Positions 298 to 8,938 of a DNA stretch of 9,731 nt are shown one piece after another (the first letter of the stretch is position 1; each line of letters starts with the position of its first letter). Under the pieces are notes generated by a model. The model was not told where the DNA came from, ran no database searches, and saw only the letters and a list, made by a program, of their open reading frames with translations. Where the stretch lies: IMG/VR virus record IMGVR_UViG_2713896772_000022. One strand, given 5' to 3'. The translations under genes were made by a program, and so were the position numbers. Source of the DNA: a virus. Taxonomy: Duplodnaviria > Heunggongvirae > Uroviricota > Caudoviricetes.

Positions 298-570
298 TCA
301 GACAGGAATTTGCTGACGGTTTGACAGCTTTGACGCGGAGCCATAGCGATTGAGAGTTTGCTGTTGTTTTTCCGGTATTTTTGCTTTGTCTGATTCCTGT
401 TCATTGCACCGAGGCTTCATAATTATCGTATCCACGCTTTCCAGTGCGGTAAATGTGCAGGAACATTCCAGATTCTGGCACTGATACCATGAGCGTTTAA
501 CCGACGGAGCTTCATAGGCGCTGGTTCTGGCGTGAGCGACCGCGCCACATTCAGGACACTTCAGGGCCAT
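298..570 (-). CDS. delta: Ogr/Delta-family zinc-finger late-gene transcriptional activator (90 aa)
   Basis: MALKCPECGAVAHARTSAYEAPSVKRSWYQCQNLECSCTFTALESV closely resembles P2 Ogr as I recall it (MFHCPLCQHAAHARTS...YHQCQNVNCSATF..ESV), with the C-x2-C...C-x4-C zinc motif. ATG at 570 chosen over the track start at 672 because the protein then starts at the conserved motif; GGAG lies ~10 nt upstream; ATG follows the psu stop (TGA 574-572) by one base. Confidence 0.85.
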   Translation of the reverse strand: MALKCPECGAVAHARTSAYEAPSVKRSWYQCQNLECSCTFTALESVDTIIMKPRCNEQESDKAKIPEKQQQTLNRYGSASKLSNRQQIPV

Positions 571-571
571 A

Positions 572-1126
572 TCAGCACACTCCTTTTTCATTAAGTCGGT
601 TAAGGCGGGCCAGGAAAACTTTATGTTGTGCCGGGGTGAAACTGGCTGAAGCATCAGCGCGCATTGATGCATCCACCGTTAATCCGGTTTCGTCGATAAT
701 GCTCTTATATGCTGCTGAAATTACCGGAGTACGCATTTCCGTTTGTCGGGCTACAGCGGTTCGTAATATTTTCATTGCCGCCTCAAGCCCGTATGGAGCG
801 CAAAGAAAAGGAGCCAGAGCGTCAGTGAGTGCATCACCATGCTCGCTCATGAAGTTTTCCGTTGCGCTTGTAACACAACTCTCCAGCACAATCTGATGAG
901 CATAAAGACCATCCCGTGCAGCACAGTTAATCTGCCATTCGAGGACTGCAAGACGCTCACGAAGATCCTCAAGCTGGCTGGCATATGCTGCCGGTTTTTC
1001 TTCAGTATCCAGCAGAGCCGCCAGACGAAGCTGGTAGGTACTTTGCGTATTACGTAGTGTCAGCCAGCTTTTTATCGCCGAGCGGTAATCGTTGAGTGCT
1101 TCCTGAGTAATGGTTCCGGCATTCAT
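572..1126 (-). CDS. psu: Polarity suppression protein Psu (184 aa)
   Basis: Segments FMSEHGDALTDALAPFL and ASFTPAQHKVFLAR match my recollection of P4 Psu (FMQQHGTALAAALAPEL; EKFTPAQNMIFSRK); length close to 190 aa. ATG at 1126-1124 overlaps the upstream stop TGA 1125-1123 (ATGA coupling). Confidence 0.85.
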   Translation of the reverse strand: MNAGTITQEALNDYRSAIKSWLTLRNTQSTYQLRLAALLDTEEKPAAYASQLEDLRERLAVLEWQINCAARDGLYAHQIVLESCVTSATENFMSEHGDALTDALAPFLCAPYGLEAAMKILRTAVARQTEMRTPVISAAYKSIIDETGLTVDASMRADASASFTPAQHKVFLARLNRLNEKGVC

Positions 1127-1875
1127 TTCTTCTCGCCCCCTTTAACCATGTCACGCTGTTTAAGCATCCGTGAACGCGCTGCAGGGCTGGGGGATTGTCT
1201 GGCATCCTGGATGGCTTTATCGTCCGCATAAATGCTGATCCCCGGCAGGGTAATATCATCGGTTGAAGATACGTTACAGGACAGTGCCGGAGTGGTGAGT
1301 TGCTCGCTGATAAATTGCTTCAGCACACTTTCGGGGTCGTTTACGGTATGAACTACACCGATAACAGCAGAAGCGCTTCGGCCCAGAGTCATTTTCAGCA
1401 GTCCAAGGATCTGAATAAGTTTCTGACCGTGTTCCTTCATAAACTCATTCCAGAGCCACACTGCATGAGTTTCAATCAGGCGATTATGTTCGCTGATGTA
1501 GTGGTTTGCAGCATCCGCAGTTTTCCAGGGCAGGAATTCATTTTCTGCCGCCTGAGCTGCCAGCAAATCTTCGAACTCATCCAGTGTTTCGCGTCCGAGG
1601 GCGATTTCTGCCCGCAGTTTTTTCATGCGTGGCGTCATATTTCCCTGATTCTCACGAAACAGGTTTCGCCATTCATCATTAAGCGCCTGCGTTTCCGTTT
1701 TTGTATCTTCCTGACGTTTACGGATAGTTTCAATCATTGCAGCAGCTTCAGTTTGTTTTCGTCGTTCTTCCTGCCAGACAGCTTTTGCTGCCTTAACTTT
1801 ATCCACCGCTTCGCGAATTTTCGGTGGGAGGGAGGGTGTAATGTTTGCATCAGGGATCTGGTTAACAGTAGTCAT
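1123..1875 (-). CDS. sid: Sid-like capsid size determination protein (putative, 250 aa)
   Basis: First gene of the late operon, immediately upstream of and coupled to psu; charged, helix-prone N-terminal half; size close to P4 Sid (244 aa). Track start at 1908 is TTG; the ATG at 1875 has GGAG 7 nt upstream. Assignment is by synteny and composition, not recognised motifs. Confidence 0.55.
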   Translation of the reverse strand: MTTVNQIPDANITPSLPPKIREAVDKVKAAKAVWQEERRKQTEAAAMIETIRKRQEDTKTETQALNDEWRNLFRENQGNMTPRMKKLRAEIALGRETLDEFEDLLAAQAAENEFLPWKTADAANHYISEHNRLIETHAVWLWNEFMKEHGQKLIQILGLLKMTLGRSASAVIGVVHTVNDPESVLKQFISEQLTTPALSCNVSSTDDITLPGISIYADDKAIQDARQSPSPAARSRMLKQRDMVKGGEKK

Positions 1876-2250: not shown

Positions 2251-2789
2251 ATTCTATGTAAAGAATAAAAGATGTCTTATGTCTGTTTAATAATTAAACA
2301 TTCAACCTCCCTGCACTCAGTTGCATTTCAGGAAAATATTCATAAAAATGAATTTGTCTGATGTTCATTAAACACATCCGGATACATGCGGAAGTAAGAT
2401 GGTAATTTAATTTCTTTAATCATCGGATTTATTGATACATATGGTGAGCTGTTTATTTTTGGCCGTTTTGGCTCTTTTATTAATCAGGTGTTGTCTTAGT
2501 GCTTATGATGTAACGCCCTGAATGATATGGGCTGGTTCAGATTTGAGCTGTGATCCTGCCTAGTGTAATAGACTTTTTTATTATTGATGCTCCTTATTAT
2601 ATTCCATAAAGGAATTGTTTGTTTTTGTTCGTTTCATACGGTTTTTAGCTGTTTTATTTTTTGAGAAATCAACATTTCACACAAAATAAATAAAGCATGC
2701 GCGAGCCGCTTATATAAACATAATAAGGAGCTACCTGAATCCGCATGGAATTGCCCGGACTGTTGTAAACATATTAGAGAGGTAGCCAG

Positions 2790-3050
2790 ATGAATAGTAT
2801 TTCCGTTTCCACCCCGGCACCAGCTGCTCCGGTGCTCCCGGTTCCGGCTCAGCAGGAGCGCTTCATACGATTACCTGAAGTGATGCACCTTTGCGGGCTA
2901 TCCCGTTCAACCATCTACGACCTTATCAGCCGCGATGCCTTCCCGCAGCAGATATCCCTGGGTGGAAAAAATGTGGCCTGGGTACAGTCGGAGGTCAGTG
3001 CATGGATGGCGGCGCGAATTGCTGCCCGCGAGCAAGGAGGCCATGCGTGA
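2790..3050 (+). CDS. AlpA/Vis-family phage transcriptional regulator (86 aa)
   Basis: [47 protein letters not shown] has the AlpA-family helix-turn-helix signature (LSRSTIY...FP..LGGR.V.W...E). ATG at 2790 with GAGAGG ~8 nt upstream; stop TGA 3048-3050. Confidence 0.85.
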
Positions 3051-3085
3051 AACTTGCTTTGCAGTCTCATCTTCTTTTTTCTGGC

Positions 3086-3115
3086 TTGCGTCCTGATATC
3101 TTTTCCAGGTATAGT
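3086..3115 (+). promoter_or_regulatory. Candidate sigma70 promoter (TTGCGT-N18-TATAGT), possible PLE-like promoter
   Basis: -35-like TTGCGT at 3086-3091 and -10-like TATAGT at 3110-3115; lies upstream of the seqA-like element. Predicted by eye only. Confidence 0.3.
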
Positions 3116-3144
3116 TTTCCCGCTGCCGCAAAATCGGCTGCCGG

Positions 3145-3177
3145 GCGTAGGAACCCGAGTTACTTATTGGCGACACC
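3145..3177 (+). promoter_or_regulatory. seqA-like target sequence (GCGTAGGAAC ... TACTTATTGG)
   Basis: Blocks GTAGGAA and CTTATTGG are exactly complementary to TTCCTAC (3321-3327) and CCAATAAG (3306-3313) downstream; the same two blocks recur at 3352-3392. Confidence 0.4.
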
Positions 3178-3178
3178 A

Positions 3179-3200
3179 GACGCGCCGTGCGTCTTTTTTT
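3179..3200 (+). terminator. Hairpin GACGC-GCCGT-GCGTC followed by T7 (terminator-like; possible immunity terminator or RNA structure)
   Basis: 5-bp GC stem at 3179-3183 / 3189-3193 and a run of seven T at 3194-3200, immediately after the seqA-like element. Confidence 0.4.
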
Positions 3201-3239
3201 ACGTCGTTGCTCAGGCACACCCATTTTTCGGGCTGCGGT

Positions 3240-3340
3240 GCTTATACCTTAGCCCCTTTCAGATAATGGTGGTCCGGGCGGGGCAGCCTTCGGGCTGGCC
3301 GGTTTCCAATAAGGCCGGTATTCCTACCCCCGTTCGGGTC
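3240..3340 (+). ncRNA. Candidate CI-like immunity RNA containing a seqB-like segment (3303-3330); boundaries approximate
   Basis: GC-rich untranslated stretch with several short hairpins (e.g. GCC-TTCG-GGC; CCGG...CCGG) and a segment antisense to both seqA-like and seqC-like. No convincing ORF with a ribosome-binding site. Confidence 0.25.
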
Positions 3341-3351
3341 ACCACCCATGA

Positions 3352-3392
3352 GCGTAGGAACTCCGGTGGTGGCATTTACCGCTACTTATTGG
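3352..3392 (+). promoter_or_regulatory. seqC-like target sequence overlapping the RBS of the first small gene
   Basis: GCGTAGGAAC at 3352-3361 and TACTTATTGG at 3383-3392; the second block is fused to the GGAGG Shine-Dalgarno of the ATG at 3404. Confidence 0.4.
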
Positions 3393-3403
3393 AGGTTGCC
3401 CTT

Positions 3404-3595
3404 ATGGCTACGATCCTCGCCCCGTCACATCCTCAATTTATATTTGTTTTTGCCGCCGTTCGTCGTGCAGAACGTAAACCACGTATCAGTATGCTGCGTA
3501 TCATCGCCAGCAATGAGCATCATGCACGTCTTTCACTGGTCCATGAGTATGTGCTTTGTCTTGCTGCTCGCCTGCCTGTCCGGGAGGTGATCTAA
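3404..3595 (+). CDS. Small protein (63 aa), first gene of the replication operon; possibly Kil-like with a nested in-frame internal start
   Basis: ATG at 3404 with GGAGG 8 nt upstream; stop TAA 3593-3595 overlaps the next ATG (TAATG). Internal in-frame Met at codon 30. Functional assignment is by position only. Confidence 0.4.
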
Positions 3596-3819
3596 TGAAT
3601 CACGCCGCAATCTCTTATGACGATATTCTCCGCCTGAAGCATCTTCGTAACGTGGGAGAGTTTGTCACTGGAATGGCTGTTCTTCAGGATTGCTACGAAA
3701 AACCTGCCAGTGCTCAATGTGAACAACTGGTTTCCCTGATTTATCTGATGACAGAGCAGCTTGATGGCGTGGTACAGCGTTGCCAGGATGACCTCATGAA
3801 CATGGAGGTGGTGCAATGA
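3595..3819 (+). CDS. Hypothetical small protein (74 aa)
   Basis: ATG at 3595 preceded by GGGAGGTGA about 6 nt upstream; the track's upstream extension starts at a non-ATG codon. Stop TGA 3817-3819 overlaps the next ATG (ATGA). Confidence 0.55.
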
Positions 3820-4139
3820 AATCACGCACTCTTTCCCTTTCACTTCGGGTAGCGTTGTATCGCCGCGCGGTAGCCTGCGCCTGGTTGAGTGCCTGCTATC
3901 AGCAAAACCGCCATCTGCAGCTCACTCTGGATGAAATTGAAACCGCTATTGCCCGTGAGCTTGAAGGATTTTATCTGCGACAGCACGGGCAAACAAAAGG
4001 CATGGAAATCGCCTGCGCCCTGCTTTCAGACCTGATGGAATACGGCCCTCTAATGTCCTGTCCCGCACTCTCCCAGCTCGGAATAGCCGTAATGGATGAG
4101 TTATGCGTCCGTCACATCAAAAAGCCGGTTTTACACTGA
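3816..4139 (+). CDS. Hypothetical protein (107 aa), immediately upstream of the primase
   Basis: ATG at 3816 with GGAGGTGG upstream; translationally coupled to the previous gene; stop TGA 4137-4139 is 14 nt before the primase ATG. Confidence 0.6.
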
Positions 4140-4153
4140 GGGAGAACTGCGTC

Positions 4154-6487
4154 ATGTCAGGAATGAAAGTCAGTCAGGCCGTGAAGGCTGCCCGCGGTCA
4201 CTGGGCTCAGATTCTGCCAGCGCTGGGCGTGAATATATTGAAAAATCGCCATCAGCCTTGCCCGGTCTGTGGCGGTAAAGATCGTTTTCGCTTCGACGAT
4301 CAGGAAGGACGCGGAACATGGTTCTGCAATCAGTGCGGAGCCGGGGATGGTTTAGCGCTTGTCACCAGGGCACTGAATGTGGATATCAGTGAAGCAGCTG
4401 ACAGGATACATGGACTGACACATGATCTGTCTGTAGTTAATTCCGAGGTCAGGACGTTAACCGCCGATACCGATAGCGGGAAAGATGCAGCGGCAGCACT
4501 TGCCGCGCGACTGCTGCAAGCCTCGCGTGAATCTGCCGGAAACACTTATCTTACACATAAAGGTTTCCCGGAGCATATTTGCCATGAGCTGACTTCAGCT
4601 CATAAGGCCGGTGGTATGATGTTCCGCCCCGGTGATTTGATCGTCCCACTCTATAACGCTGACGGGGAGCTGGTGAATATTCAGCTCATCAGTGGCAATG
4701 GTAGCAAGTGTTTTCTTAAAGGAGGTCAGGTTAAGGAGGCCTATCATCTGATAGAAGGGGGCGGGAGTTCTGTAAGAAGGATTTGGATTGCGGAAGGTTA
4801 CGCCACGGCGCTTACCATTCATTATTTGACAGGAGAAGCCGTCATGGTGGCATTTTCGTCGGTCAACTTTCTTTCTCTGAGCAGCGTTGCCCATAATAAG
4901 TATCCGGGATATCAGTTAATTATTGCAGCGGACCGCGATCTGAATGGTTCAGGCCAGAACAGGGCTGAAACTGCTGCAAAAGCGAGTCAGTGTGACATTG
5001 TGCTGCCACCGGTTTTTGGTGACTGGAATGATGCGCTTACCCAATACGGAGAGGAATCCACCCGGAAGGCAATTCTTGAGGCTTTGAAGCCACATAACGC
5101 CAGTCCTTTCGACACAATGAGTGAAGCAGAATTCACAGCGATGAGTGTCAGCGAAAAAGCTCAGAGGGTTCGGGAGCATTACAGGGATGCACTGGCGGTT
5201 GATCCGAACGGGCAGCTTTTATCCCGCTACGAGTCTGGAGCGTGGAAAGTTATTTCTCAGTCAGATTTTGCCCGAGATGTCGCAGCCCTTTTCCAGCGCC
5301 TCGGGGCACCGTTTTCCTCAGGAAAAATTGCCTCACTGGTGGAAACATTAAAGTTAATTGTTCCGCAGCAGCAAAATCCGTCACGTCATCTGATTGGTTT
5401 TCGTAATGGCGTTCTCGATACGCGAACAGGGCTTTTTAGTCCGCACTGTAAAGAGAACTGGCTGCGTACCCTGTGTGAAGTCGATTTCACGCCACCGGTA
5501 AAGGGGGAAACGCTTGAAACTCATGCCCCGGCATTCTGGCGTTGGCTGGACCGGGCCGCCGGACACAAGCCAGCAAAACGCGACATTATTCTTGCAGCGT
5601 TATTTATGGTGCTGGCGAACCGCTATGACTGGCAGCTCTTTCTGGAAGTGACTGGCCCTGGTGGAAGTGGCAAAAGTATTCTGGCTGAAATTGCGACCAT
5701 GCTTGCTGGAGAGGATAACGCCACCTCTGCGACCATTGAAACGCTGGAGTCCTCGCGAGAACGTGCGGCTCTGATAGGTTTTTCTCTTATTCGCCTGCCT
5801 GATCAGGAGAAGTGGAGCGGCGACGGCGCCGGGCTTAAGGCTATAACTGGTGGCGATGCAGTATCTGTGGACCCCAAATATCAGAATGCTTATTCAACAC
5901 ATATTCCGGCGGTTATCTTGGCCGTAAATAATAATCCTATGCGCTTCACTGATCGCAGTGGTGGTGTGTCCCGCAGGAGAGTTATTCTGCATTTTCCTGA
6001 GCAGATAGCACCGGAAGAACGCGATCCGCAGTTGAAAGATAAAATTGCACGAGAACTGGCTGTGATTGTTCGTCAGCTCATGCAGCGTTTCAGCGATCCG
6101 ATGAGCGCCAGAACATTGCTTCAGTCGCAGCAGAATTCTGATGAGGCTCTCACCATCAAGCGTGATGCTGATCCAGCATTTGATTTTTGTGGCTACCTTG
6201 AGGCATTACCTGACACCAACGGTATGTTTATGGGGAACGCCAATATTGTCCCACGCCAGCCACGTACATACCTTTACCATGCCTACCTCGTATACATGGA
6301 GGCTAATGGCTATAAAAACACCCTGAGTCTTACGATGTTTGGCAAAGGGTTGCCAGTCATGCTGAAGGAGTACGGGCTACATTATGAGAAACGGCGAACT
6401 AATCAGGGAATGCAAACTAACCTCACTTTGAAAGAGGAGAGTAATGCAGACTGGCTGCCCAAGTGTGATGAGCCAATATTAAAATAA
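4154..6487 (+). CDS. alpha: P4 alpha-type bifunctional DNA primase/helicase (777 aa)
   Basis: N-terminal zinc ribbon CPVCGGKDRFRFDD...CNQCG; Toprim-like IAEGYATALT and AADRD; Walker A VTGPGGSGKS of a D5/SF3-type helicase. ATG at 4154 has GAGGGAG 9 nt upstream and gives 777 aa, the length I recall for P4 alpha; the track start at 4103 is an alternative. Confidence 0.92.
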   Translation: MSGMKVSQAVKAARGHWAQILPALGVNILKNRHQPCPVCGGKDRFRFDDQEGRGTWFCNQCGAGDGLALVTRALNVDISEAADRIHGLTHDLSVVNSEVRTLTADTDSGKDAAAALAARLLQASRESAGNTYLTHKGFPEHICHELTSAHKAGGMMFRPGDLIVPLYNADGELVNIQLISGNGSKCFLKGGQVKEAYHLIEGGGSSVRRIWIAEGYATALTIHYLTGEAVMVAFSSVNFLSLSSVAHNKYPGYQLIIAADRDLNGSGQNRAETAAKASQCDIVLPPVFGDWNDALTQYGEESTRKAILEALKPHNASPFDTMSEAEFTAMSVSEKAQRVREHYRDALAVDPNGQLLSRYESGAWKVISQSDFARDVAALFQRLGAPFSSGKIASLVETLKLIVPQQQNPSRHLIGFRNGVLDTRTGLFSPHCKENWLRTLCEVDFTPPVKGETLETHAPAFWRWLDRAAGHKPAKRDIILAALFMVLANRYDWQLFLEVTGPGGSGKSILAEIATMLAGEDNATSATIETLESSRERAALIGFSLIRLPDQEKWSGDGAGLKAITGGDAVSVDPKYQNAYSTHIPAVILAVNNNPMRFTDRSGGVSRRRVILHFPEQIAPEERDPQLKDKIARELAVIVRQLMQRFSDPMSARTLLQSQQNSDEALTIKRDADPAFDFCGYLEALPDTNGMFMGNANIVPRQPRTYLYHAYLVYMEANGYKNTLSLTMFGKGLPVMLKEYGLHYEKRRTNQGMQTNLTLKEESNADWLPKCDEPILK

Positions 6488-6498
6488 CGATTAACTAA

Positions 6499-6523
6499 CC
6501 CGGCTGATGCCGGGCTTCTTATT
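6499..6523 (+). terminator. Rho-independent terminator downstream of the primase
   Basis: Stem CCCGGC (6499-6504) / GCCGGG (6509-6514), loop TGAT, then CTTCTTATT; 12 nt after the primase stop. Confidence 0.5.
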
Positions 6524-7392: not shown

Positions 7393-8217
7393 ATGATAAA
7401 GCCATTTTCTGTGAGGTATGGTCATGTTGACGTTAGAGAGCATGTCCAGCTGAATGATCTTAATTCTGATACACGCATGGCATTGTGGAATTGCTTATAT
7501 CTTTTCCTTTGGACTAACAATCGTCAAACTGCTACAGCAACAAAATGTGCGCAGTCTGTGTGGATATATTATCTAAATCAACCTGCGGATAATATTCCTC
7601 GTTATGAAAGTGGATACAAAAGTGATAAGACGTTGCTGACTGCTATCCGAGATTATATATATGGGGAAGCATGGTATTTGGTATATGATTTAATTGAGTT
7701 CATCATTGAGAGAACTAATTCATATATTAATCTATCGAAGCATCTCAATTCCATCTTTAAAAAGCATGGCGTTGGTTATACCATAATAAATGGTTGTATT
7801 ACTCCTATTTCAAATGATAACGAAATTGAAAGTGTTCAGAACGCAGTTGATAATGGCACTGATTCATCGCGTAGCCATTTCGAAAGGGCGTTACAACTAA
7901 TGACGGATAGAGAGCAGCCAGACTACAGAAACTCGATTAAAGAGTCTATCTCTGCAATTGAATCTTTATGCAGGAAAATCACGGGCAATGATAAAGGAAC
8001 CTTGGGGGCTTGTCTTAAAGCTATAGAGGAAAAAGGATATATACACTCTGCAATGAAAGGCGCTTTTAGTCAGCTCTATGGTTATACAAGTGATCAGGGT
8101 GGAATACGTCATGCGCTAACAGAAGAAGATGTAAATCCTACCTTAGCTGAAGCTAAATTTATGTTAGTCACTTGCAGTGCGTTCAGTAATTATCTGTTGT
8201 CAAAAATAAGTGATTAA
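7393..8217 (+). CDS. Hypothetical protein (274 aa), low-GC cargo; function unknown
   Basis: ATG at 7393 with GGGGAAG upstream; long uninterrupted ORF with AT-rich codon usage unlike the satellite core; stop TAA 8215-8217 followed by a strong hairpin. No motif I can assign with confidence. Confidence 0.75.
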   Translation: MIKPFSVRYGHVDVREHVQLNDLNSDTRMALWNCLYLFLWTNNRQTATATKCAQSVWIYYLNQPADNIPRYESGYKSDKTLLTAIRDYIYGEAWYLVYDLIEFIIERTNSYINLSKHLNSIFKKHGVGYTIINGCITPISNDNEIESVQNAVDNGTDSSRSHFERALQLMTDREQPDYRNSIKESISAIESLCRKITGNDKGTLGACLKAIEEKGYIHSAMKGAFSQLYGYTSDQGGIRHALTEEDVNPTLAEAKFMLVTCSAFSNYLLSKISD

Positions 8218-8235
8218 TTACAGGTTTATAGTTAC

Positions 8236-8256
8236 GAGTGGGTTAGTTACCCACTC
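8236..8256. terminator. Hairpin between convergent genes (GAGTGGGT-TAGTT-ACCCACTC), likely bidirectional terminator
   Basis: Perfect 8-bp stem at 8236-8243 / 8249-8256, between the stop codons at 8215-8217 (plus) and 8266-8268 (minus). Confidence 0.5.
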
Positions 8257-8265
8257 CCTTTAAAA

Positions 8266-8838
8266 TTATTCACCAGACTCTAATCTTTTTTCTCTTTTCT
8301 CATCTCTCCTTTTTATTGCCAAATCGTGTTGCTCTTGCAGATACGTGCGTTCTTCGTTTCTATCGCTTGAAGTATATACGTCTGCTTTTACTTTTTTAGC
8401 TCCTTGTGCAATAGGTTTCCAATCCTCTCTTATACCTTTAATTTGTTCTGCAATTTGCGTCAATGGGCTTCTCGCTCCTAGATAACTTATTCCTTCAAAT
8501 GTCGCCATGTCATACACATATTCATTTGTTTCTCTATCGTTTGATTTAGGTTTGCTTGCCCAGCTTATATTAATATTATAAATTTGATCTTTGATTTGTT
8601 CATACTTACAGAGATTGCTGGTAAGTGATTGCCCATTTTTTAACACGCTTACCTTACTAAACGGAATCTCACTTTTTTCTCTATGCTCCGCATTTACTAG
8701 TGGAGGATCAAACACAACCTCAACATTATAGGCAGGTGCGTTCCCTGTATTAGCAATGTTAATATCAAAGTAAAAAGCGGCCCAAGGGTTTGGCTCAAGT
8801 GTTACAACTATATGGGGTTGAGCTGATGCGTCAACCAT
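8266..8838 (-). CDS. Hypothetical protein (~190 aa), low-GC cargo; 5' end abuts the IS911 terminus
   Basis: The track ORF (208 aa) starts at GTG 8892, inside the IS-end sequence. The first ATG is at 8838 (MVDASAQPHIVV...) with only a weak Shine-Dalgarno. N-terminal half looks beta-rich, C-terminal tail highly charged (KRRDEKREKRLE). Confidence 0.6.
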   Translation of the reverse strand: MVDASAQPHIVVTLEPNPWAAFYFDINIANTGNAPAYNVEVVFDPPLVNAEHREKSEIPFSKVSVLKNGQSLTSNLCKYEQIKDQIYNINISWASKPKSNDRETNEYVYDMATFEGISYLGARSPLTQIAEQIKGIREDWKPIAQGAKKVKADVYTSSDRNEERTYLQEQHDLAIKRRDEKREKRLESGE

Positions 8839-8938
8839 TCTTTTTGTCTCGTCTGCTCTGAAGTGGTGAAGTGGTTTACTGAATTTGGCCACCTGAACAG
8901 AGGTGATATGCTCACCTCAGAACAACACAGGTGCTCCA

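Follow-up and report, generated by a model that had tools for sequence, protein, structure and literature searches.

The immunity of the satellite phage P4 is well known, and its mechanism has been set out in several studies (PMC4825925, PMC3632133, PMC10111431). The P4 CI RNA, which is processed by RNase P (PMC5499578), causes premature transcription termination, the block of kil translation being one route to it (PMC4825925; PMC10111431). The constitutive promoter lies within the eta gene, and Kil is a truncated Eta (PMC10111431). The elements that resemble isrK and C4 are known to the P4 literature as seqA and CI RNA (PMC3632133; PMC4825925). The c4 RNA of P1 and P7 is likewise processed by RNase P (PMC5499578), and the Gifsy-1 locus adopts alternative translationally inactive and active structures (PMC4825925). 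Here we analyse a 9,731-nt stretch of viral DNA (IMG/VR record IMGVR_UViG_2713896772_000022; hereafter the window), which is a P4-like satellite prophage. Its region 3086-3420 is very probably a P4-type RNA immunity module that works as in P4. A preliminary description had proposed this reading, and it is borne out by C4 and isrK matches above their thresholds, by a colinear alignment with P4 and by compensatory change at both the seqA-seqB and the seqC-seqB pairings. Homology, RNA structures, complementarity and covariation at three sites, overlap with a Shine-Dalgarno (SD) sequence and conservation of an open reading frame (ORF) are the direct observations. The mechanism and the RNA families are already known; what is specific here is the recognition type.

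The promoter and the matches to Rfam covariance models are as follows.

3086-3115, plus strand: PLE-like constitutive promoter, with -35 TTGCGT at 3086-3091, an 18-nt spacer and -10 TATAGT at 3110-3115; expected start near 3122.
3109-3161: c4-a1b1 (RF03163), 43.8 bits, below the gathering threshold of 46.7.
3122-3199, plus strand: isrK / P4 seqA RNA (RF01394), 72.1 bits with the terminator included, threshold 50.
3262-3349, plus strand: C4 antisense RNA (RF01695), 83.4 bits, E 1e-15, full length over model positions 1-87, threshold 45.

With the same models the P4 genome scored 74.9 bits for C4, 60.8 for isrK and 44.1 for c4-a1b1, in an identical layout. From vis to kil the pairwise alignment with P4 is colinear, and the homologue of P4 cI (the CI RNA) falls exactly on the middle segment of the locus, where the preliminary description had placed it, and nowhere else. 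Conserved with P4 are the -10 of the promoter, the hairpins of seqA and the intrinsic terminator, the scaffold of CI and the SD-ATG of the next gene; the recognition blocks are not, and they are altered together at the three sites. The promoter was placed by homology, its -10 TATAGT aligning with the -10 annotated in P4 (record X02534), and the isrK model begins at 3122. A generic sigma-70 promoter scan of 2700-4200 called nothing; the internal promoter escapes such a scan because its -35 matches at three of six positions. As in the P4 left (replication) operon, the leader lies 3' of a constitutive-type promoter and 5' of kil and primase. An additional Rfam match, to tsr24 at 2269-2378 (19 bits, E 0.77), was dismissed as chance.

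Within this leader, the RNA elements and the first gene that follows them are distributed as below.

3122-3158, plus strand: seqA hairpins I (3122-3141) and II (3142-3158), the a-block lying in the loop of hairpin II; helices 99-100% paired in the 101 sequences of the alignment described below.
3147-3170, plus strand: seqA target, with a-block 3147-3153 and b-block CTTATTGG 3163-3170, covarying with seqB.
3178-3201, plus strand: intrinsic terminator (t1-like), AGACGCG-CCG-TGCGTCT followed by T7, called by the terminator scan and forming the 3' part of the isrK model.
3267-3345, plus strand: CI RNA (C4 family), about 79 nt, made up of a basal stem of 17 bp, two hairpins at its apex and a 3' tail that contains CCA (3345-3348).
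3306-3327, plus strand: seqB, the apical loop carrying b' CCAATAAG (3306-3313) and a single-stranded junction carrying a' TTCCTAC (3321-3327).
3340-3371, plus strand: alternative helix, CACCACC 3340-3346 with GGTGGTG 3365-3371.
3354-3392, plus strand: seqC target, with a-block 3354-3360, anti-SD CUCC 3361-3364, hairpin 3368-3373/3381-3386 and b-block 3385-3392.
3391-3395, plus strand: kil Shine-Dalgarno GGAGG, its first two G within the seqC b-block.
3404-3595, plus strand: kil homologue, 63 aa, Icd-like (NCBIfam phage_ICD_like, NF033153, 6.8e-19), the first translated gene 3' of the internal promoter.

The blocks were checked by exact string search of the whole window. The a-block GTAGGAA, found at 3147-3153 and 3354-3360, extends to CGTAGGAAC at 3146-3154 and 3353-3361, and the b-block CTTATTGG, found at 3163-3170 and 3385-3392, extends to ACTTATTGG from 3162 and 3384; a third copy of CTTATTGG at 6518 is unrelated. 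Their reverse complements, CCAATAAG (3306-3313) and TTCCTAC (3321-3327), have one copy each in the window and lie between the direct copies in inverted order. The search agrees with the block sequences, positions, order and spacers (9, 7 and 24 nt) first reported for the region. The claim that the second b-block is joined to the ribosome-binding site (RBS) of the gene at 3404 also holds, since GGAGG 3391-3395 shares its first two positions with the end of the second CTTATTGG and is followed by the ATG at 3404. The gene is Kil/Icd-like. When 3086-3420 was shuffled with dinucleotide composition preserved, a direct-inverted-direct arrangement of two separate 7-mer blocks arose in 25 of 20,000 shuffles (about 0.1%), a count in which the inverted block order was not yet demanded. 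The comparative evidence is a stronger argument than this chance test.

Homologous leaders were collected by scanning viral contigs for the conserved CI scaffold, which returned more than 100 loci. Alignment A2, built with MAFFT, comprises 100 distinct leaders (loci L004-L122) plus the window, 101 in total, with the recognition blocks of CI in columns 234-241 and 252-258. The seqA-seqB pairing showed 99.3% of cells paired, with both sides changed in 13 of 15 pairs and a covariation score of 0.739 (shuffled mean 0.210, best slid control 0.155). The seqC-seqB pairing behaved in the same manner, with 97.6% of cells paired, both sides changed in 12 of 15 pairs and a score of 0.700 (shuffled mean 0.209, best slid control 0.155); some of its residual mismatches are one-column shifts in the MAFFT alignment. 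None of 500 shuffles reached the observed score in either test, and the slid controls were at most 52% paired. All four target blocks are perfectly complementary in 96 of the 101 leaders, across many block sequences. The recognition blocks fall into discrete types, 7 for a' and 18 for b' in 38 combinations, with seqA and seqC changing to match; the type of the window, CCAATAAG plus TTCCTAC, is one common class. One leader (L091:1663-1957) is chimera-like, its CI b' being CCAATAAG and both its targets CTTCAAGG (5 of 8 pairs), while complementarity holds for its a module; recombination that left immunity half broken could account for it, as could an artefact of assembly.

G.U pairs occur 17-18 times at the outermost b pair and 4-6 times at inner b pairs, a tolerance that fits pairing of plus-strand RNA and not a DNA site. 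This bears on the possibility that the blocks act at the DNA level, what looks like an inverted repeat being an operator or a recombination site. Proteins can indeed bind repeats, inverted or direct, that lie close to a promoter, but wobble at several pairs would be a mismatch in DNA, the blocks occupy loops or junctions of conserved RNA hairpins, and their sequences are hypervariable among relatives; we give a DNA-level explanation next to no credence.

The predicted fold of CI (3267-3345) equals the Rfam consensus, with a minimum free energy (MFE) of -47.1 kcal/mol and a z-score of -4.76 on the plus strand against -1.72 on the minus strand, and its basal stem is 99.9% paired, four pairs being changed on both sides. 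Opening costs are low for the modules of CI (2.4 kcal/mol for b' and 0.01 for a') and for the seqA a-block (0.3) and b-block (1.8), the latter located between hairpin II and the terminator. The terminator itself is conserved; 31 sequences have C-G in place of a G-C pair. In hairpin I of seqA the window carries a U.U mismatch (3124/3139; GCUGCC...GGCUGC) at a position that is U-A in 96 of the 101 relatives. The two block helices are worth -7.7 and -7.6 kcal/mol, and the spacers of 7, 9 and 24 nt form halves of hairpins; the contacts are therefore better described as two separate short helices than as the single bulged duplex first envisaged. At seqC the b-helix can be extended over the entire Shine-Dalgarno by pairing AGG with UUU 3303-3305 of the CI loop (A-U, G.U, G.U), giving -11.1 kcal/mol. 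Also at seqC, the anti-SD pairing of CUCC 3361-3364 with GGAG 3391-3394 is 97.5% paired with little variation, and the hairpin 3368-3373/3381-3386 is among the conserved helices.

The alternative helix 3340-3346:3365-3371 is 98.2% paired, with five of seven pairs changed on both sides and a covariation score of 0.342 against 0.204 for shuffled alignments. It takes in the 3' strand of the CI basal stem and cannot form together with the base of that stem or with the seqC hairpin, and the seqC a-block would be looped by it. Such a covarying exclusive helix indicates that the leader has attenuator-like alternative folds; it may serve in precursor folding, in processing or as a t4-type terminator. 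The terminator scan called a terminator-like hairpin at 3364-3381, presumably equivalent to the atypical t4 terminator of P4, which we take to lie at the matching position in the account of Briani et al. 2000. For P4, t1, t4 and timm are assigned their roles here in accordance with Briani 2000 and secondary descriptions.

That cis structure switching occurs in the leader, as this helix shows, and that the three sites share one transcript could suggest an attenuator acting in cis only, in which seqB pairs with seqA or seqC of the same nascent transcript and no diffusible RNA repressor is made. Against this, the MFE fold of the whole leader keeps CI independent, with seqB unpaired with either target, and CI has the form of an RNase P substrate (a stem plus a CCA tail). 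Moreover, the CI of P4 is a processed stable RNA that acts as the immunity factor (PMC4825925, PMC10111431, PMC5499578). We judge a purely cis-acting device very unlikely.

A different division of labour is conceivable for the terminated seqA RNA (3122-3201), which in addition to CI or instead of it could itself work in trans, like IsrK in Gifsy-1, and either sequester CI or switch on translation by opening the long transcript. The isrK match of 72.1 bits comes with its own terminator, SeqA RNA is a structural homologue of IsrK (PMC4825925), IsrK-like elements of P4-like prophages are reported to have been required in S. Typhi (PMC3632133), and seqA RNA shares both its a and b blocks with seqC, so it could compete for CI. 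This role, however, is the one shown for Gifsy-1, and P4 seqA is described as a target of CI that promotes termination (PMC4825925, PMC10111431). An IsrK-type function would complement CI immunity and would not replace it; we hold it to be possible but rather doubtful.

Several results weigh against a P4-type module at this locus. The c4-a1b1 match is slightly under its gathering threshold (43.8 vs 46.7 bits), a shortfall that we attribute to the model and not to the locus because genuine P4 also scores below that threshold (44.1). The duplexes expected in the preliminary description fared unevenly when whole-molecule prediction was compared with shuffled targets, being modestly better at seqC (z -3.0) and not better at seqA (z -1.5); this method unzips the long stem of CI and is uninformative here, so that support for the pairing comes from covariation and not from energies. 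The isolated seqC b-block and Shine-Dalgarno are already sequestered in cis, with an opening cost of 8-10 kcal/mol, and CI may for this reason work beyond simple RBS occlusion, acting more by structure switching or termination. Insertion sequence (IS) elements are inserted close by in the prophage, which may not be mobile.

The RNA elements are embedded in coding sequence, and three further features concern this layer.

2790-3050, plus strand: vis/alpA homologue, 86 aa (Pfam Phage_AlpA, 4.2e-20), aligning with P4 ORF88/vis.
3047-3595, plus strand: eta-like long ORF, 182 aa, whose GTG start overlaps the vis stop (GTGA); a PGAP coding sequence (CDS) in the identical RefSeq record.
3380-3497, plus strand: C-rich, G-poor stretch with C/G up to 1.7, a candidate Rho loading region.

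The eta-like ORF is preceded by the Shine-Dalgarno AAGGAGG (3034-3040), 6 nt upstream of the GTG at 3047. It encloses seqA, the terminator, CI and seqC, with kil nested in frame, and the same holds in P4. In 97 of 102 distinct homologues no stop interrupts its frame between a point upstream of the promoter and the kil ATG, and nearly all of them have 1-8 stops in the other two frames; anchor and ATG are separated by a multiple of three in 96 of the 102, and the lengths of the indels that distinguish homologues are nearly always divisible by three (+6, +24, +36, +45, -12). Stop-like triplets are present in common b' types, and all those inspected by eye are out of frame. Judged by this conservation the immunity region is dual-coded, for RNA structure and for protein. 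Pfam Phage_ASH matches the translation of 3110-3403, that is, the RNA region itself; its dismissal as a spurious translation of RNA was rejected, as the frame is conserved and corresponds to P4 eta. The middle segment, called an untranslated RNA at the outset, is thus not simply so, since it lies within the conserved eta-like ORF 3047-3595. In P4, translation of eta is coupled to the alpA homologue, takes place only on transcripts from the upstream late promoter and prevents termination (PMC10111431).

With the frame open in 97 of 102 homologues, a Phage_ASH match and annotation solely as CDS, one could ask whether the blocks merely encode repeated Eta or 'Ash' peptide motifs, their complementarity being incidental. 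A protein constraint does not predict what is seen, namely that three sites always stay complementary (Watson-Crick or G.U) through 7 a' and 18 b' unrelated types; covariance models, which take RNA structure into account, exceed their thresholds, and the fold is strand-specific (z -4.76). A coding by-product is accordingly an extremely improbable explanation. For the kil homologue, NF033153 scores 67.7 bits (cut-off 25) over residues 131-178 of the 3047-3595 product, inside the 3404-3595 ORF, and the protein shares 71% identity with P4 Kil and 41-50% with its counterparts in N15 (cA region), phiKO2 and PY54 (icd). The composition of 3380-3497 is compatible with Rho loading when kil is untranslated.

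That the RNA is processed, acts in trans and brings about termination, and that the element is heteroimmune, we infer by homology with P4; the module would then operate as follows. The constitutive promoter inside the eta-like ORF would transcribe a leader containing seqA, the terminator, CI, seqC and kil, from which RNase P and 3' trimming would release CI as a stable RNA of about 79 nt; the form of a substrate, a 17-bp stem plus a CCA-containing tail, is seen in CI. The exposed modules b' (CCAAUAAG, in the hairpin loop) and a' (UUCCUAC, in the single-stranded junction) would pair in trans with seqA and seqC on new transcripts. Pairing with seqA would favour the adjacent intrinsic terminator, making CI synthesis autoregulated, and pairing with seqC would cover the kil Shine-Dalgarno and fix the local hairpins, leaving kil untranslated. 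Transcription past an untranslated kil would end before the replication genes (the DUF5375 gene and the primase, 4154-6487). Transcripts from the late promoter would escape, ribosomes coupled from vis translating the eta-like ORF through the RNA elements. Occlusion of translation initiation, the effect originally proposed, has a real basis in the SD overlap but would not be the whole effect, the main outcome in P4 being premature transcription termination (PMC4825925; PMC10111431).

Because the blocks at the three sites are changed together relative to P4, we predict that the element is heteroimmune to P4. More broadly, we think it rather likely that P4-like satellites carry a two-module combinatorial immunity code, in which a' and b' reassort independently to produce many heteroimmune classes within an open eta frame. 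Since the blocks lie inside that frame, each switch of specificity must satisfy three RNA sites and one reading frame. Heteroimmune relatives of P4 are known from older work, and no systematic description of a'/b' module reassortment was found in the literature searched. In engineering, this wider pattern of blocks that reassort within the limits of a reading frame could help in building orthogonal RNA repressors. For enterohaemorrhagic Escherichia coli (EHEC) O26 the prediction is a satellite immune to its own kind and not to P4, which bears on satellite-helper-phage dynamics and on satellite coexistence.

Copies of the 335-nt region with at least 99% identity are present in 161 complete E. 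coli genomes, and 1181 of 5426 contain related sequences. PGAP gives the entire eta-like ORF the label 'host cell division inhibitor Icd-like protein' in RefSeq records such as NZ_AP027162, and no ncRNA feature for C4/CI or isrK/seqA was found in the inspected records, although both exceed the Rfam thresholds. A textbook RNA immunity switch thus goes unannotated in many genomes, where its only label is that of a gene for an 'Icd-like' or 'ash family' protein.

The window is 100% identical over its 9.7 kb to E. coli O26:H11 chromosomes (e.g. EH031 and strain 11368). Its best match in the phage collection is P4, at approximately 70% nucleotide identity from vis to orf106. Rightward from vis/alpA (2790-3050) the order is the long ORF 3047-3595, a 74-aa ORF, a DUF5375 gene of the P4 orf106 family and a primase-helicase of 777 aa (4154-6487), in synteny with the P4 order of vis, eta/kil, DUF5375 gene and primase. 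The minus strand carries an ogr/delta-like zinc-finger gene, psu and a sid-like gene. The order of these late genes (298-1875, minus strand) is unlike that of P4: the 89-aa ogr/delta-like gene is distal to psu, whereas P4 has sid-delta-psu, and the protein at the sid position gives a weak Pfam match to the Psu family. Between the sid-like gene and vis there is an imperfect 33-nt direct repeat (2030-2062 and 2114-2146) with TGTTCAC-type iterons, which is likely to be the replication origin because P4 ori occupies the same position.

At the position of P4 epsilon, a gene of helper derepression, the window has the 74-aa ORF (3595-3819), coupled to kil by TAATG and without a Pfam or NCBIfam match, and no orf151 equivalent was found in the window. 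The region 3' of the primase (7393-8892) contains a gene with an AbiJ-NTD4 domain (7393-8217), a divergent ORF of 208 aa and an IS3 pseudogene. Upstream (L003, 1-6000), between the integrase and the delta-like gene, lie an IS66 element and two cargo genes. These genes on either side may represent defence cargo, and the satellite a degraded one. The surrounding 21.7-kb locus yielded no tRNA gene, and attR was consequently not located.

When compared with described systems, the locus most resembles P4. The two share the gene order (vis, eta with nested kil, DUF5375/orf106, primase), the promoter -10, the seqA hairpins with their terminator, the CI scaffold and the seqC-SD-kil junction, and their three Rfam matches have the same spacing in both. 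They differ in the a-block (GTAGGAA in the window, GTGAGAA in P4), the b-block (CTTATTGG and TTCACAGG, respectively) and seqB (CCAATAAG/TTCCTAC and CCTGTGAA/TTCTCAC). The window is also about 45 nt shorter between the terminator and CI, has an unrelated 74-aa ORF at the epsilon position, lacks orf151 and is approximately 70% identical to P4 in nucleotide sequence overall.

The c4 RNA of P1 and P7 (immI: c4-icd-ant) belongs to the same RNA family by covariance model, and it shares the layout of modules a' and b' with target pairs upstream (a1, b1) and downstream (a2, b2), the downstream one overlapping the RBS of an Icd-like gene, a comparison based on the Rfam models. P1 is a plasmid prophage and not a satellite, and its downstream effector is the antirepressor Ant and not a primase operon. 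The Salmonella Gifsy-1 IsrK/STnc1160 locus also has an IsrK-like element with a terminator, with a processed RNA of C4 type and a small ORF after it; there, however, the short IsrK RNA activates translation of orf45-anrP in trans, leading to AntQ production.

The cA/icd loci of N15, phiKO2 and PY54 complete the comparison. The window segment 3108-3371 is 80% identical in nucleotides to phiKO2, and the Kil-like ORFs of these phages are 41-50% identical to the window's. N15, phiKO2 and PY54 are linear-plasmid prophages, in which the locus controls an antirepressor and not satellite replication genes. The same segment, from seqA to CI, has nucleotide relatives in phiKO2-like Klebsiella phages, and 3251-3433, from CI to the start of kil, has relatives in 46 Stx2a-converting phages at 69% identity. 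The leader relatives in phiKO2-like and Stx2a-converting phages, together with the Kil-like ORFs of N15 and PY54, indicate that the module is shared well beyond satellites.

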